This document shows, one piece after another, positions 19,898 to 56,217 of a stretch of DNA of 64,000 nt. The stretch comes from Paludibacteraceae bacterium (GTDB lineage: Bacteria > Bacteroidota > Bacteroidia > Bacteroidales > Paludibacteraceae): NCBI GenBank assembly GCA_017471285.1, contig JAFUUZ010000026.1, positions 27 to 64,026 on the forward strand, given 5' to 3'. The notes below the pieces were generated by a model. It did no database searches and had not been told where the DNA came from. It worked only from the letters and a program-made list of their open reading frames with translations. Both the position numbers and the translations under genes were made by a program. Every line of letters begins with the position of its first letter. The stretch's first letter is position 1.

Positions 19898-20443
19898 ATG
19901 AAACAACCAATCAGCGACGCAAGGAGGGAGTACACGGACATCGTGAATGACATCCCCACGACAGTTGCAATACCAGGTACAAAGAAGTCCGTCAAGGTGA
20001 CGGGAATGAAGCCCTACACGATAGAGCGATTGACTGAGTTATGGTGTTCCCGCGATATGACTATCAAGGAGGACAGTTCTGAAACTCTGCGCGACCTCTG
20101 CAAAGAGCCGTATTTTGCGGTGAAGGAGGCGTGCCTTTTCGTTCTGAACGGCTATTGGAGGATAAGGTTGCTTTTCCCTCTGATGTGGCGTATATGGGGC
20201 AAATTGAGGGGCTATACCGAGGCGCAGATGCTGCCTATCATAATGGAAGGTAAAAAAAAACTTCCGCTTACGGCACATTGGACCAATATGGCGTACTCGG
20301 TGGATATGAGGAACGATTGGATGAAGCTGACGAGCAAGGAAGCAGAGCAATACCGAGCCGAACTTCTCTCGGTTGCGAAGCGGCTTTCTGCGAAAAATTC
20401 CCACAGTACGGGGGAATCCGCCGCTTCTTCTTCGGCCTCATAG
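19898..20443 (+). CDS. tail assembly chaperone (G-like)
   Basis: 181 aa, directly upstream of the tape measure gene, overlapped by a -1 frame ORF. Confidence 0.6.
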   Translation: MKQPISDARREYTDIVNDIPTTVAIPGTKKSVKVTGMKPYTIERLTELWCSRDMTIKEDSSETLRDLCKEPYFAVKEACLFVLNGYWRIRLLFPLMWRIWGKLRGYTEAQMLPIIMEGKKKLPLTAHWTNMAYSVDMRNDWMKLTSKEAEQYRAELLSVAKRLSAKNSHSTGESAASSSAS

Positions 20444-33550: not shown

Positions 33551-34876
33551 ATGACAGAGCAAGACATTACCACCTTGACCCCCGTGTACACGAATCCTCG
33601 TGTGCTTGAAGGTCTCGCAATCGTGGCCCACAATCCCTCTACGGGAGACCCGATTGCATTCGATGCCGGCAAGCTTTGCAACACCGCGTTCAAAGACTTG
33701 TCTATGTACACTATCTACGGTGGCTCTCTCGCCAAGCGCGAGACCGCCAACTGCTATGTTATCAAGGAGGCCGGAGCGTATATGTTCCCCCTCGTCTATG
33801 GTAACGCTATCAAGGGCGGCGTAGCCAACCCCAACGCCTACACGAACAACGGTGCGACCTACTCCAACGACTTCGTGAACTCCCGCGATGTGCAAATCAC
33901 CTCGCCCTTCATCGAACTCAACACCGGCTGCGCCGTGGCATCCTGCGAGGTTGTGTGGCAGGACCACCAGGACCTCATTCAGAATCTCGAACTCTACGAA
34001 GGTGGCGACTGCAAGTATGTCCGCTTCATCATTGATTCGATGCCTTCCCTCAACGCAAACGCGATTATCGCGGTCAAGGACGGGTCGGGCAACATTCTGT
34101 GGAGCTGGCACATTTGGTGCTGCCTGGACGACCTTTCGCCTATCACCTTCACCAACCACACCGAGGTCAACTACGACCTTATGCCGATTAACCTCGGTTG
34201 GAAGTGGGATTCTACCGACCGTCTCCGTGGCCGCTCCCCGCACTATCAATGGGGGCGCAAAGACCCGATGCCCTGCCCTGCGGCCTACAACTCCAATAGC
34301 AACACTTCTCTGTGGGGCGCAAAGACCTACGGCTCTGCTGAGGCCGACACTATCGGCGCGGCAATCAAGAATCCGCACCTCTTCTACAAGCAGGACGGTG
34401 AGACCTACTACAATTGGTTTACCGGCGGAAGCAAGTACAATCTGTGGAATGCCGCAGTCACCACGACCGGCGCGGGCGACGACCAAGCCTCGGCCAAAAA
34501 GACTATCTATGACCCCTGCCCCGTCGGGTTTATGCTCCCTGCGGGTCGCGCCTTCACGGGCTTCACTACCTCCGGCGGCAATGTCAGTAGCGGCGCTCCT
34601 ACGGGCTGCGAGGTTATCGGCGAGTGGTCGAACGGTTGGACGATGAAGAAGAATGCCAACGATACTGTCGGTAACTTCTTTGCCGCATCCGGCAGCCGTG
34701 GTAGGACTTCGGGTGCGCTCCTCAATGTTGGCAGCCGCGGCAACTATTGGTCTTTTGCCTCCGATAGCCGGGCTAGCGCTTACCTCTTGCGCTTCGATTC
34801 GAGCAGCCTCTACCCGTTGAACGGCGACCGCCGGGCTTACGGTTTCGCGGTGCGGCCTTGCCGAGAATTATCTTAA
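33551..34876 (+). CDS. DGR target protein 1 (441 aa), C-terminal CLec-type variable domain (DUF1566 / Fib_succ_major-like)
   Basis: The C-terminus ...FAASGSRGRTSGALLNVGSRGNYWSFASDSRASAYLLRFDSSSLYPLNGDRRAYGFAVRPCRE carries VR1. Upstream are DPCPVGFMLPAG and WGRKDP motifs. Confidence 0.9.
   Translation: MTEQDITTLTPVYTNPRVLEGLAIVAHNPSTGDPIAFDAGKLCNTAFKDLSMYTIYGGSLAKRETANCYVIKEAGAYMFPLVYGNAIKGGVANPNAYTNNGATYSNDFVNSRDVQITSPFIELNTGCAVASCEVVWQDHQDLIQNLELYEGGDCKYVRFIIDSMPSLNANAIIAVKDGSGNILWSWHIWCCLDDLSPITFTNHTEVNYDLMPINLGWKWDSTDRLRGRSPHYQWGRKDPMPCPAAYNSNSNTSLWGAKTYGSAEADTIGAAIKNPHLFYKQDGETYYNWFTGGSKYNLWNAAVTTTGAGDDQASAKKTIYDPCPVGFMLPAGRAFTGFTTSGGNVSSGAPTGCEVIGEWSNGWTMKKNANDTVGNFFAASGSRGRTSGALLNVGSRGNYWSFASDSRASAYLLRFDSSSLYPLNGDRRAYGFAVRPCRELS
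34681..34865 (+). repeat. DGR variable region VR1
   Basis: Gap-free 185-nt match to TR 35656..35840. 24 mismatches by hand count, all at TR adenines. Confidence 0.93.
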
Positions 34877-35655: not shown

Positions 35656-35840
35656 TGCCGCATCCGGCAACCGTAATAGAACTTCGGGTGCGCTCAACAA
35701 TGTTGGCAGCAACGGCAACTATTGGTCTTTTGCCTCCAATAGCCAGGCTAACGCTTACAACTTGAACTTCAATTCGAGCAACCTCAACCCGTTGAACAAC
35801 AACAACCGGGCTAACGGTTTCGCGGTGCGGCCTTGCCGAG
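35656..35840 (+). repeat. DGR template repeat (TR)
   Basis: AAC-rich copy of the VR sequence (reads as ...SGNRNRTSGALNNVGSNGNYWSFASNSQANAYNLNFNSSNLNPLNNNNRANGFAVRPC). Ends 21 nt before the first RT ATG. Confidence 0.93.
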
Positions 35841-35861
35841 CATTGAGAGACCGTGTGCGAT

Positions 35862-37073
35862 ATGTTTTTTCATAGTACGATGAAACACTACACGAGAGAG
35901 GAAATACATCTGTTGGTGACGCAGGGCTATCTTGATGCTCGGCAGAATGAGCGCAGCAAAGGCACTCAGCTTCTGTACGAGATTCACCAAGAGACCAACA
36001 TTGCCGACCTCACCAATGCCTTGTATAACCGCGAGTGGAAACCCGCGCCTCCTATCGTGTTTGTCGTGACTGACCCTACTGTACGCGAGGTCTTTGCGCC
36101 TCAGTTCCCGGATAGGATTGTCAGCCACATCGTCTATTCCTTGTTGTCGCCGCTTTTCGAGCGCCGCTTCATCTACGATTCCTACTCTTGCCGAAAAGGG
36201 AAGGGAACGCTCTTCGGTATAGAGCGCTTCGAGCATCATATCCGAAGCGTGACCGACAACTACAAGTACACCGCCTACATCCTCAACCTGGATATATCGG
36301 GCTACTTTATGAGCATCCACAAGCCTACGCTCTACGACATCATCCATACCACCCTTGACGAGTATGCCGCTCGCGACTGCCGGCCGGGAGTGAAGTGGTC
36401 CGATGTCATAGATTTCGAGTTCTGTGACTATGTTATCCGCCAAATCCTCTTTCGCGACCCGTTGAAGGGAAGTATCTATATGGGCGACCCGAAGCTTCGC
36501 GCCCTCGTGCCGCCACAGAAGCTGCTGCGCAATTCTCCTGCGGACACGGGATTGATTATTGGCGATTTGACCTCGCAACTTTTCAGCAATGTCTATCTCA
36601 ACCCCTTCGACCATTTCGTGAAGAGGGTGTTGCATATCAAGGGCTATGGCCGATATGTTGACGACGGGCGTATGATTCATCGCGACAAGGACTATCTGTT
36701 GGAGTGCAAGGAGCGCTCCACGGTGTTCTTGAAGGAGCGTCTGCGCCTTGTGGTCCACCCGACCAAGACCACCATTACCTCTACGGAAGAGACCAACTTC
36801 TTCCTCGGCGCAGCGATACGGGACTACCGCCGCTATGCCAAGAACGATACTGTCGGCCACTTCCACGAGACTGTGCGCCTCTACGAGAGGGCCATTGAGA
36901 CGGGGGCATACCTTGACCTCCTGGGTATGTACTCGGTGTTGAACTCCTACCTCGGTTACTTTCAGCACTTCAAGGCCAAGACTATCGTGGAGCGCACGCT
37001 GCGCGAATCCCCGGTGTTGAACTACTTTACGCTCACGCCAAACTGCAAGAAAGTTATTCTCAAACCCTTATAA
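35862..37073 (+). CDS. DGR reverse transcriptase
   Basis: GRYVDDG (YxDD catalytic box), LTSQLFSNVYLNPFDHF, and SCRKGKGT upstream. Start is ambiguous (GTG 35853, ATG 35862 or ATG 35880). Confidence 0.92.
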   Translation: MFFHSTMKHYTREEIHLLVTQGYLDARQNERSKGTQLLYEIHQETNIADLTNALYNREWKPAPPIVFVVTDPTVREVFAPQFPDRIVSHIVYSLLSPLFERRFIYDSYSCRKGKGTLFGIERFEHHIRSVTDNYKYTAYILNLDISGYFMSIHKPTLYDIIHTTLDEYAARDCRPGVKWSDVIDFEFCDYVIRQILFRDPLKGSIYMGDPKLRALVPPQKLLRNSPADTGLIIGDLTSQLFSNVYLNPFDHFVKRVLHIKGYGRYVDDGRMIHRDKDYLLECKERSTVFLKERLRLVVHPTKTTITSTEETNFFLGAAIRDYRRYAKNDTVGHFHETVRLYERAIETGAYLDLLGMYSVLNSYLGYFQHFKAKTIVERTLRESPVLNYFTLTPNCKKVILKPL

Positions 37074-42620: not shown

Positions 42621-43226
42621 TTAATTTAATTCTCGGCAAGGCCGCACCGCGAAACCGTAAGCCCGGCCGTTGTTGCCCAACGGGTAGAGGTCGCTCGAAT
42701 AGAAGCCCAAGTAGTAAGCGTTAGCCTGGCTATCGGAGGCAAAAGACCAATAGCGGCCGTAGCTGCCAACATTGGTGAGCGCACCCGAAGCGCTAACACG
42801 GTAGCCGGAGGCTGGTAGGAAGATAGAGTTGCCATTAGGACCGACGACATCGTAGCCCTTCTTGTCAGAGTTCCAGGTCCACTTGCACTCTTCTACGAGT
42901 TCCGCGATAGCGACCGCTTTCGGAAGGAATTTGCCGAAGATGTCAACGGCCTCGTAGTGCGTGTAGTAGTCGGGCGCATTCTCTGTGGCCCACAGTCGGC
43001 CCGAAGGGAGGCCGAGGTCAACATACTTGAAGGCATCGGGATTGAAGGTTTCCTTCGTCAGCTTATTGGGATTGGCCTTCTTTTCGGGCCGCTCCGAAAT
43101 ACTGATGTCAGACACCTCCATACCCTCCGTATCTTCAACCATTTCGTTGAACAATTCCTCAATGTAGGAATCGCTCTTCTCTCCAAAAATATCGTTGGAG
43201 AGGTCAAGTTCGATAGTTACTTTCAT
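42621..43226 (-). CDS. DGR target protein 2 (201 aa), same CLec-type variable C-terminus
   Basis: ...FLPASGYRVSASGALTNVGSYGRYWSFASDSQANAYYLGFYSSDLYPLGNNGRAYGFAVRPCREL carries VR2. The N-terminus is acidic with no signal peptide. Confidence 0.88.
   Translation of the reverse strand: MKVTIELDLSNDIFGEKSDSYIEELFNEMVEDTEGMEVSDISISERPEKKANPNKLTKETFNPDAFKYVDLGLPSGRLWATENAPDYYTHYEAVDIFGKFLPKAVAIAELVEECKWTWNSDKKGYDVVGPNGNSIFLPASGYRVSASGALTNVGSYGRYWSFASDSQANAYYLGFYSSDLYPLGNNGRAYGFAVRPCRELN
42632..42812 (-). repeat. DGR variable region VR2 (remote, opposite strand)
   Basis: The reverse complement aligns gap-free to TR 35660..35840. 22 mismatches by hand count, all at TR adenines. Confidence 0.9.
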
Positions 43227-43402
43227 TTTCCTTTCTTGAATTTACCGAGGTGATTTTTTCTGAGGTAGCGCTTGTGCGTCTTGGAGGATGCGCGATAGAG
43301 ACCGTAGGCTTCGACATCGCCGAGATGCTCCTTGACAATCGGCATCATACCGCCGTAGTCCGGCATAAGATAGGGATAGGTTTTACCCCCCCCCCGTGCC
43401 AT
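43223..43402 (-). CDS. small basic protein (59 aa) translationally coupled to DGR target 2
   Basis: ATG 43402 (MARGGGKTYPYLMPDYGG...). Its stop overlaps the target-2 ATG (ATGA at 43226..43223). The reading frame passes through the G10 tract. Confidence 0.45.
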   Translation of the reverse strand: MARGGGKTYPYLMPDYGGMMPIVKEHLGDVEAYGLYRASSKTHKRYLRKNHLGKFKKGK

Positions 43403-43475
43403 TTTCCTGCGCAAAGAGCGCAGCAAGCGCCGCAAACAGACCGATGCGCCGCTTCAAAGTGGATGTTCCTTTCAT
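43383..43475 (-). CDS. 30-aa signal-peptide-like ORF ending just after the G10 tract
   Basis: Hand-read MKGTSTLKRRIGLFAALAALFAQENGTGGG then stop. Loss of one G would fuse it in frame to 43223..43402. Confidence 0.35.
   Translation of the reverse strand: MKGTSTLKRRIGLFAALAALFAQENGTGGG
43386..43395 (-). repeat. homopolymer G10 (C10 on the + strand)
   Basis: Counted directly in the sequence. Confidence 0.95.
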
Positions 43476-43486
43476 ATGGATGTTGG

Positions 43487-43993
43487 TTAGAGATTTCTGC
43501 GGTGCGCGAACTCTGCGAGTAGGGTCGCGTCAACCTTATTGTCGTCAATGTTCTTGCACCTCGGATTGCGGCGGAAGTCCTCATAGGGAAAGAGGCGCTT
43601 GGCCGCGTTGATAGAGGTGTTCTTGGTGTCAACCATTTTCTTCCCGTCGTGCTTGTATCGGTAAACCTTGTCCTCCGTAATCCATATCTCATTCTGCCAT
43701 TGCTTAGGCTGAACGAGGTGGTACGGGAAGCCGTAGGCTATGATAAGCCCTTTGAGGAATCCGAAGGTCTCGCCGAAGGAGAATGTGGCCTTCGCGGAAC
43801 TGCCGAAGATTGCGTGAACTTCCTCCATTACGCAGACGAATTTATCCTGCGGGCGGAGGGAGAATTTGGCAAAGAAGGCGGCAATCTCGCGAGGGTCGTG
43901 TTCCGACAAGGCGAAATACTCGTTGATTCCGTCCTCGGAGCGGACGCAGATGTAGCCGATGCTGCCGGGGTCTATCGCGATATAGTATTTCAT
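43487..43993 (-). CDS. RuvC-like Holliday junction resolvase
   Basis: N-terminal YIAIDPGS, then VMEEV and a late NKVDA acidic residue. This is the pattern of phage RuvC-fold resolvases. Confidence 0.65.
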   Translation of the reverse strand: MKYYIAIDPGSIGYICVRSEDGINEYFALSEHDPREIAAFFAKFSLRPQDKFVCVMEEVHAIFGSSAKATFSFGETFGFLKGLIIAYGFPYHLVQPKQWQNEIWITEDKVYRYKHDGKKMVDTKNTSINAAKRLFPYEDFRRNPRCKNIDDNKVDATLLAEFAHRRNL

Positions 43994-53528: not shown

Positions 53529-54353
53529 TCAAGTCAATGTCAAAATATTCTTCGAGAAATTGTTTTGTATGTAGTTGATATTCAGCGAATAGGGGGGGGC
53601 AATTGCGTCATAGAACTCCGCCATACTATTGCAAAACATCTTCATATAGACTGCATCATAGACATTGGCGAAGGTCTTTGCGCTCTTGGTGTCGGGGTGG
53701 TCCGTAAACCACTTATGGTAGGCTCGCACCCAGGCTTTGAACATCCGTGGGTATTGCTTGAAGTCGGCTCGTCCCTTGTCCGCTTGAAGAGGGCATCCGA
53801 TACAACCGACGCGGCGCTTCACGCAGAAATTTCCGTCGGCATCGTAGTAGTGAGGGTGGCATTTGATGCCGCGCATTTTGATGAACTGCTCCACATCCTC
53901 GTCGGTCCACTCCAAGATAGGCAGATACAATCGCACTTTCTCGGTCTTGGAATAGACGCGGCAGACTTCCGGCTCGTGGTAGCGCTTAGTCCTCGCGACA
54001 GATTCCGCCCTGCGGATTCCAAGCACGGCTCTGTCATAGACTTTATACTCCTTGAGCGCCTTGCAACAGAATCGCATCCAACGGCTCGGCCAACCCGATT
54101 CTTCAATCAGTTTGAGCATTCCCTTCGGCGGGTTGATGATTGTCGCGCCAACCTCCCTTGCGTGAGGAAGAGAGCCAGGGCGGTCAATCGTCGTGTTCTT
54201 ATAGATTGCCTCGAACGGGATGCCGGCCATTTTCGCAAGTTCAAGAATGACATCGCTATCCTTTCCCGTTGAGTAGGATATTTCTATCGGTCCGTCCTGC
54301 GGGATGCTTTGCAGAAGCTTAATCGCGAAGTCAATCTTGCGGTTGAGGTCCAT
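53529..54353 (-). CDS. PAPS-reductase-like PP-loop ATPase
   Basis: ISYSTGKDSDVILEL (SGGKDS-type PP-loop), GIRRAESVARTKRY, LPILEWTDEDVEQFI, and late GCIGCPLQ. Confidence 0.8.
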   Translation of the reverse strand: MDLNRKIDFAIKLLQSIPQDGPIEISYSTGKDSDVILELAKMAGIPFEAIYKNTTIDRPGSLPHAREVGATIINPPKGMLKLIEESGWPSRWMRFCCKALKEYKVYDRAVLGIRRAESVARTKRYHEPEVCRVYSKTEKVRLYLPILEWTDEDVEQFIKMRGIKCHPHYYDADGNFCVKRRVGCIGCPLQADKGRADFKQYPRMFKAWVRAYHKWFTDHPDTKSAKTFANVYDAVYMKMFCNSMAEFYDAIAPPYSLNINYIQNNFSKNILTLT

Positions 54354-55438: not shown

Positions 55439-56217
55439 TCAGAAAAGTGTTAATTGCATTTGTTCCAAGTCTATGCGCTGCTGAGCGTAATCGCAGTAGC
55501 GCTTCGAGATTTCCGTACCGACATATTGGTATTTGTCTTTGATGCAAGCAATGGCAGTTGTACCCGTTCCCATAAAAGGGTCATACACAATTACCCCCCC
55601 CGTGCGTATATTGCTAATAATCTGCGACATAGCACGGTAGAGAATGTTGCCTTGTGGATGTCATTGCTTCCGTCGTTGTTGGGCGCTTCTATGAGGTTAA
55701 AGATGTTCTCGTAGTTGGCCTGGCCGGAGGCGCGGTGTGTCGTAACCTTCTTGTTGGTCTTAAAGGTGGCGAACTCGCTCTTGCGGCAGAACACAAAGAC
55801 AAACTCGCAGATGCGGGTCAGTTTATTCGGCGAGCAGGAGTTTGGCGAGGTGGTCGTCTTTTTCCACACGAGACAGTCGGCGACGATGAAGTTGGTCTTG
55901 CGCTGAATCTCCGAGACGACATTCCACATCAGCCAAGTGTTCTCGGCTGAGTAGCTGAGGTTGTATAGAACGCATCCGTCTTTGACGAGAACGCGGTCAA
56001 AACCCTCGAAGATGCGAAGCGTCCAATCAATGTATTCTTCGTCACTCTTGCGGTCGTTGTATTCGTCGTAGCGGACATTGGCGCAAGCGCCCGTCAATGA
56101 AGAGCCGCGCCGAGAGGTGTTGTAGGGAGGCGATGTCAGAATCACATCCACAGACTGCGGCTCGGCGGCTTGCATCCATTCGATACAGTCTTGGTTGTAG
56201 ATTCTGTTGACCTCCAT
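55439..56217 (-). pseudogene. beta-class N6A/N4C DNA methyltransferase interrupted by a frameshift at a G8 tract
   Basis: The N-terminal ORF (55591..56217) has ILTSPPYNT (motif IV). The C-terminal ORF (55439..55630) has VYDPFMGTGTT (motif I). One extra G in the G8 run (C8 at 55594..55601) gives ...LLAIYARGGVIVYDPFMGTGTT... in one frame. Confidence 0.8.

Follow-up and report, generated by a model that had tools for sequence, protein, structure and literature searches.

A stretch of 64,000 nucleotides of DNA (the window), which makes up nearly all of contig C81 of a 55%-complete metagenome-assembled genome (MAG), contains on its minus strand a small gene whose reading frame is broken by a run of ten guanines, tract T1. 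The length of this run differs among near-identical phage contigs, and of the three lengths that we encountered (G8, G9 and G10) only G9 encodes a complete protein, of 83 aa. T1 is probably a hypermutable tract that changes length by slipped-strand mispairing and generates heritable ON (G9) and OFF (G8, G10) alleles of the small gene, as one of three contingency loci of the same phage genome.

A reading of this region made from its sequence only had described a 30-aa signal-peptide open reading frame (ORF) that T1 separates from a second, downstream ORF. The minus-strand ATG at 43475, located 11 nt after the stop of the gene for a RuvC-like resolvase, indeed opens MKGTSTLKRRIGLFAALAALFAQENGTGGG, and this frame ends at a TAA (43385-43383) directly after the ten Gs (43395-43386). 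We translated the small-gene products in silico for tract lengths from G7 to G11. Removal of one G from the window's G10 fused the stub to the downstream frame, as had been anticipated, and gave a product of 83 aa (MKGTSTLKRRIGLFAALAALFAQENGTGGGKTYPYLMPDYGGMMPIVKEHL...KFKKGK); G8 led to a 42-aa product with a wrong tail and G10 to the 30-aa stub. T1 is therefore a homopolymer of at least about 8 nt (G10 in the window) lying inside the 83-aa frame, and its length toggles the gene between an intact state (G9) and truncated ones (G8, G10). The announced overlap between the stop of the small gene and the start of target 2 of a diversity-generating retroelement (DGR) is also present, the TGA of the downstream frame overlapping the target-2 ATG (ATGA). 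The G10 stop sits 160 nt upstream of this overlap, and the candidate restart sites are ATG 43402 and an ATG CCG 17 nt past the stop. The 59-aa product that starts at ATG 43402 was the gene callers' choice in G10 relatives. In the G8 frame, the TGA overlaps ATGATG, from which a 41-aa form could be made.

We compared T1 in 18 records that are 96-100% identical at the locus, a comparison that the sequence-only reading had proposed. No single fixed length was found: the tract was G8 in 6, G9 in 4 and G10 in 8 of them, and its length changed between very close relatives, as that reading had foreseen. A census of the gene calls in a 15-billion-protein collection found the 59-aa (G10) product in 17 contigs, the 83/77-aa (G9) product in 13 and the 47-aa (G8) product in 11. 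In an alignment of the 18 sequences (2141 columns, up to about 3% single-nucleotide polymorphism (SNP) divergence outside VR2, the variable repeat of target 2), indels occurred at T1 only, apart from the loss of 1 nt in the VR2 of L035, which shortens the target to 182 aa. This is a length polymorphism with tract-confined indels among near-identical genomes.

Further evidence that the tract changes faster than its surroundings was obtained by comparing relatives with identical flanks. L009 and L010 (both G9) and L030 and L037 (both G10) showed 0 SNPs over 1452-1856 bp and yet differed in tract length. Pairs with identical ORFs also differed, L031 being G8 and L033 G10, while L035 was G9 and L016 G8. 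One more haplotype, I79, was G8 in ERZ27297498 and G9 in ERZ27297502. In a tree of the flanks (11 haplotypes), at least five length changes were needed, compared with a mean of 6.7 when the labels were shuffled. Tract length is decoupled from the SNP haplotype. We also looked for both alleles within one sample with the help of short bubble contigs, and the G9 contig of I79 was traced to a sibling sample. The tract pattern was absent from the IMG/VR and GTDB genome contigs searched, and the scan of a single metagenome gave 2 loci.

The reading of the fused ORF as a gene depended on the existence of homologues, and these were found both as intact copies and as proteins that span the junction. 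Intact 83-aa genes were called in L009, L010, L011, L048 and L049, and an intact 83-aa product, 95% identical, was called on other contigs. An exhaustive phmmer search identified P0003 (78 aa, E 9e-14), which aligned with residues 9-83 of the query across the junction, and P0005 (73 aa), which aligned in the same manner with residues 7-83. A profile search enlarged the family to 106 clusters (37-107 aa), none of which was annotated or contained a Pfam domain. Their C-terminal part carries the motif (Y/F)G.YRA.SRTHK.YLR.HHLGKFKKG, with ten invariant columns (alignments A1 and A2), among them G58, A62, K68, L71, R72 and L76-G77-K78-F79; the C-terminal part of the window's gene bears this motif as YGLYRASSKTHKRYLRKNHLGKFKKGK. 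Towards its C-terminus, the small gene showed 5 synonymous and 5 non-synonymous substitutions, with a preference for third positions. Judging from this conservation, the fused 83-aa ORF is a real gene.

A basic n-region followed by an Ala-rich h-region of 10-12 residues was observed in 28 of 42 sampled family members and in the window's 30-aa stub. The h-region often closes with ASA or VAG, after which come Gly-rich or acidic residues. The arrangement is that of a cleavable Sec signal peptide, and export is predicted. The sequence-only reading had called the 83-aa product signal-anchored, of which the signal peptide stood and the anchor did not, because the h-region, of about 12 residues, is followed by an A-x-A-type site; the N-terminus is better read as a predicted cleavable Sec signal peptide. 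The family also has natural members devoid of a signal peptide. An AlphaFold2 model built with the family alignment had a helix at residues 5-23 and two short helices that cover the motif, a disordered linker lying in between, with a predicted local distance difference test (pLDDT) score of 59.6. We considered twin-arginine (Tat) export with target 2 hitch-hiking, an idea raised by the KRR of the n-region, and rejected it because RR is not conserved in the family. Pfam DUF3674, which scored 21.8 bits (cut-off 22) across the junction, was rejected as a chance match, only 1 of the 42 family members matching it. Neither the small protein nor target 2 matched a PHROG family, and deposited phages gave no match to the 83-aa protein (tblastn) or, at the DNA level, to the 1.4-kb region.

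The homologues also inform on the origin of the tract. P0003 and P0005 use mixed codons (GGA GGA; GGT GGA GGT GGT) for the Gly run that follows the h-region and have no homopolymer there, which indicates that the homopolymer was derived in this phage lineage. Among the Gly codons of the phage, GGG is the least used (8.7%), and the succession ACG-GGG-GGG-GGT is therefore not expected from codon usage. The downstream neighbours of P0003 and P0005 are unrelated small ORFs rather than DGR targets, from which it appears that the adjacency of the small gene to a DGR target is lineage-specific. Other genes were also found downstream in the distant relatives L002-L008, which were retrieved via the RuvC-like gene. 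On the contig that bears P0003, a G9 tract (L039:2806) is located between ORFs about 1.8 kb downstream of the small gene.

Two other tracts of the window, T2 and T3, vary in length too. The G8 of T2 divides a DNA methyltransferase into 208-aa and 63-aa pieces, and G9 leads to an intact 259-aa enzyme. In relatives T2 was G7, G8, G9 or G10, and intact 259-aa PF01555 genes were present in L024 and L027. The sequence context GCAC-Gn-TAA is common to T1 and T2. T3 ranged from C7 to C10 in relatives, with products of 256, 274, 277 and 257 aa, its length setting the C-terminal tail of a protein resembling phosphoadenosine phosphosulfate (PAPS) reductase. Strains with 0-6 mismatches from the window over 1.2-7.3 kb differed from it only at T3, by 1-2 nt. 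The lengths of T1, T2 and T3 combined independently (10/8/8, 8/8/7, 9/10/8, 10/8/10 and 10/9/9). A run of nine As, used as a control, had a length of 9 in 5 of 5 relatives, including three samples in which T3 was 10, 9 and 10. This A9 (GGT AAA AAA AAA CTT) is inside a 181-aa ORF just upstream of the tape-measure gene, the usual position of tail assembly chaperones, and could be the candidate programmed frameshift site of a chaperone pair.

Of the longer G/C runs of the window, 41 have a length of 5; lengths of 6 and 7 are absent, and the three tracts (8, 8 and 10) follow. Runs of at least 8 are as many as three in the 64-kb window vs four in the remaining 1.49 Mb of the MAG. Two of the latter, a G10 (C29:42939) and a G9 (C12:5357), apparently intergenic, have the same 3' context as T1 (Gn-TAAAA). 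In two distant phages, L004 and L005, G8/G9 tracts that break the frame were found elsewhere in the PAPS-reductase-like genes (L004:2457; L005:4022); their other positions hint at repeated evolution of such tracts. At the position of the PAPS-reductase-like gene, L023 (4564-5291) and a contig of GCA_016648615 have one or two ORFs of 121 aa, a replacement that looks like a module swap.

T1 could also be a mutational hotspot of no adaptive value: it would slip in a small gene under weak or no selection, its states would have no consequence, and the gene would drift to loss. The three frames are nearly equally frequent (17 : 13 : 11 contigs), as they would be without selection on the frame, the N-terminal part has 3 non-synonymous vs 1 synonymous change, and the gene is missing at this position in distant phage relatives. 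This explanation is nevertheless unlikely. Both halves are open and the tract is pure in 18 of 18 copies at a divergence of about 3%, and the C-terminal motif is strongly conserved over more than 100 clusters. Furthermore, three tracts occur in one genome without G/C runs of 6 or 7, and the G8/G9 tracts of the PAPS-reductase-like genes of distant relatives, being elsewhere in the gene, suggest repeated selection.

Sequencing or assembly error, which the sequence-only reading had named as its alternative, would imply that there is one true length, probably G9, and that short-read errors or bubble-popping gave a wrong consensus. Homopolymers are error-prone, our data are metagenome assemblies throughout, and the window and a near-identical scaffold of a sister assembly are 2 nt apart at T3. 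On the other hand, Illumina consensus sequences are normally reliable at homopolymers of 8-10 nt, which counts against an artefact. Contigs of the same haplotype produced by different assemblers (Logan vs ENA) agreed in length (L010/L009, L013/L012 and L038/L029), which argues against random assembler noise. No indel was found at any G5/C5 run of the 18-sequence alignment or anywhere else in its 2.1 kb outside VR2, the A9 control was fixed, and the length differences amount to up to 2-3 nt (7 to 10) consistently at three loci. Confinement of the indels to the tract, agreement between assemblers and the fixed A9 leave this alternative disfavoured, and we consider it improbable.

Long homopolymers can cause transcriptional slippage, mainly at A/T runs, a point in favour of programmed recoding, and slippage is less readily provoked by G/C runs than by A/T runs, a point against it. 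That RNA-polymerase slippage or ribosomal frameshifting yields the full-length protein from out-of-frame DNA is highly improbable even though out-of-frame alleles are the majority and both ORF halves are conserved, because programmed sites normally have a fixed, conserved length and no in-frame allele, while T1 varies from 8 to 10 and in-frame G9 is common, and because two out-of-frame registers (+1 and -1) would both need rescue. Slippage may still occur as a side effect.

Several points weigh against a slipped-strand ON/OFF switch at T1. The variation was seen between metagenome assemblies, and some of the contigs counted as independent may be one sample assembled twice. The ON allele accounts for about one-third of the contigs (13/41), as is also expected for a neutral, dispensable gene with a mutational hotspot. 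The pattern GGGGGGGG had 5 matches vs 1.52 expected, and 5 of 100 dinucleotide shuffles reached 5; this enrichment is only marginal, and the comparative evidence therefore carries the argument. The small protein has no Pfam or PHROG match and a low-confidence AlphaFold2 model, and no function is assigned to its family. Neither Bacteroidales nor their phages are, to our knowledge, documented users of homopolymer phase variation.

A slipped-strand switch at T1 would operate as follows. The tract is placed in the Gly-rich linker between the predicted Sec-type signal peptide and the conserved basic C-terminal domain, and slipped-strand mispairing during replication would add or remove one or two bases at a pace far above that at which point mutations build up. 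In the G9 (ON) state, an 83-aa exported precursor would be made and ribosomes would reach the TGA that overlaps the target-2 start. The G10 (OFF) state, which is that of the window, would give the 30-aa stub; at best, a start at ATG 43402 would add a 59-aa form that lacks the signal peptide, the ATG CCG downstream of the stop being the alternative restart. From the G8 (OFF) state the 42-aa product with its wrong tail would result, internal ATGs yielding, at best, forms of 47 or 41 aa. As members without a signal peptide exist in the family, the short forms made from OFF alleles might be active. Together, the three tracts would fit a contingency-locus (bet-hedging) strategy on top of the DGR.

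The sequence-only reading had gone on to propose that the switch modulates target-2 translation through coupling. This may be so, and several observations weaken the idea: ATGA overlaps are routine along this operon, in-frame internal ATGs that persist in both OFF states, namely 43402 in G10 and ATG CCG and ATGATG in G8, could still feed the junction, and the genes that follow distant homologues of the small gene are unrelated and not part of a DGR. We also considered whether a -1 frameshift at A-AAA-TGA could join the small protein to target 2, and found nothing in its support. The VR2 sequences of L009, L010, L030 and L037 differed although their flanks were identical (0 SNPs), which indicates ongoing DGR activity at target 2. 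The small gene itself is not a DGR part, since homologues were found in contigs without a downstream DGR target. It does not behave as an accessory gene of the Avd type either, having no Pfam match and no consistent association with DGRs among its homologues. Like avd of the Bordetella phage BPP-1 type, it encodes a small basic protein and adjoins a DGR component; unlike avd, it adjoins a remote target rather than the template repeat (TR) and reverse transcriptase, and there is no sequence similarity.

We also entertain, as a tentative reading in which we have little confidence, that the phage runs two diversification systems at once, a two-target DGR and three poly-G/C contingency tracts. T1 would then be a localisation switch, G9 giving an exported peptide and G8 or G10 a re-initiated basic domain without signal peptide, and would also set the number of ribosomes that arrive at the start codon of the remote DGR target, with which its stop overlaps. 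T2 and T3 would switch DNA-modification enzymes, so that subpopulations would differ in anti-restriction methylation and in an envelope-directed factor.

The positions of all these elements are listed in Table 1. The ends of C81 show an exact terminal overlap of 141 nt, which indicates that the contig is a circular or circularly permuted complete phage genome of 64,024 bp and not an integrated prophage in this assembly. Besides the DGR, it carries an integrase, tail genes and a replication block. The phage, a temperate one of the Bacteroidales type from gut or rumen, is widespread: dozens of metagenome assemblies, belonging to several study series, contain it, and its contigs in them, 53-66 kb long, have 96-100% identity over the aligned parts.

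Table 1. Positions in the window of the small gene, the homopolymer tracts and the associated features.
Feature	Position	Strand	Remarks
Small gene, whole	43223-43475	-	83 aa at G9; frameshifted (OFF) in the window (G10)
T1, poly-G tract (G10 in the window)	43386-43395	-	Junction of signal peptide and mature part of the small gene
30-aa stub ORF of the G10 state	43383-43475	-	n-region with K2, K8, R9, R10; h-region IGLFAALAALFA; then QENGTGGG and TAA
59-aa downstream ORF of the G10 state (MARGGGKTY...)	43223-43402	-	Own ATG at 43402; C-terminal motif YGLYRASSKTHKRYLRKNHLGKFKKGK
RuvC-like Holliday junction resolvase	43487-43993	-	PHROG 1770, E 6.7e-25
DGR target 2, 201 aa	42621-43226	-	Start overlaps the small-gene stop (ATGA)
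VR2	42628-42812	-	Inverted repeat, 88% complementary to the TR (35660-35844)
DGR TR	35660-35844		
DGR reverse transcriptase	35853-37073		
VR1	34680-34869		
T2, poly-G tract (G8)	55594-55601	-	Splits the N6/N4 DNA methyltransferase gene (55439-56217)
T3, poly-C tract (C8 on the coding strand)	53592-53599	-	Near the 3' end of the PAPS-reductase-like gene (53529-54353)
A9 control	20252-20260		

The nearest cultured relative, Bacteroides phage C3_41T2LP (OR296439.1), has a primase-helicase that is 56.7% identical over 96% of its length, and its early-gene block is of a similar type, a methyltransferase and an integrase being part of it. Its genome is mostly unalignable at the DNA level, and a homologue of the small gene was not found in the 26 kb examined. 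The stretch examined contains one G9 tract (L047:19112, about position 66462 of the record), in a 77-nt gap between two hypothetical early genes.

As in Campylobacter phages, several poly-G tracts lie in coding sequences of one phage genome, and their length would give ON and OFF subpopulations. In these lytic Fletchervirus phages, Sorensen et al. reportedly found in 2021 that tract length varies inside a phage stock, with effects on receptor-binding proteins. The present phage is temperate, of the Bacteroidales type and equipped with a DGR, and its variation is between metagenome assemblies only. None of its tracts is in a receptor-binding or tail-fibre gene: T1 is in the replication operon, in a gene for a small protein predicted to be exported, T2 in the DNA methyltransferase gene and T3 in the PAPS-reductase-like gene. 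The hypermutable polyG tracts of Campylobacter phages (Cell Rep 35:109214) are cited as such in PMC12823448 (ref 58) and PMC10877375 (ref 59), and are the only phage precedent named in the literature searched, the device being otherwise a textbook one of bacterial bet-hedging.

Homopolymer phase variation is classical in bacteria and includes phase-variable methyltransferases (PMC11868660, PMC2831843; for C. jejuni PMC4889913). T1 resembles bacterial contingency loci in being a homopolymer inside an ORF, in the switching of the frame by 1 nt and in the decoupling of its length from phylogeny, and one of the three phage tracts is likewise in a DNA methyltransferase gene. It differs from them in that the tract is phage-borne and not chromosomal, and in its position exactly between signal peptide and mature domain, as a result of which the OFF states may yield forms lacking the signal peptide. 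Our literature search gave no report of poly-G tracts in phages of Bacteroidales or in phages with a DGR. The locus thus belongs to an established type, here met in a host group and in gene classes that are new for it, to which is added an unannotated family of small proteins. Gene callers split or truncate the genes concerned (30-, 47-, 59- and 208+63-aa calls), which means that annotation pipelines mis-describe them. If switching is confirmed, contingency loci would be in use next to DGRs in Bacteroidales phages, phase variation would extend to phage DNA-modification genes, and for a family of more than 100 clusters of small phage proteins, predicted to be exported, nature would provide an ON/OFF handle for the study of its function.

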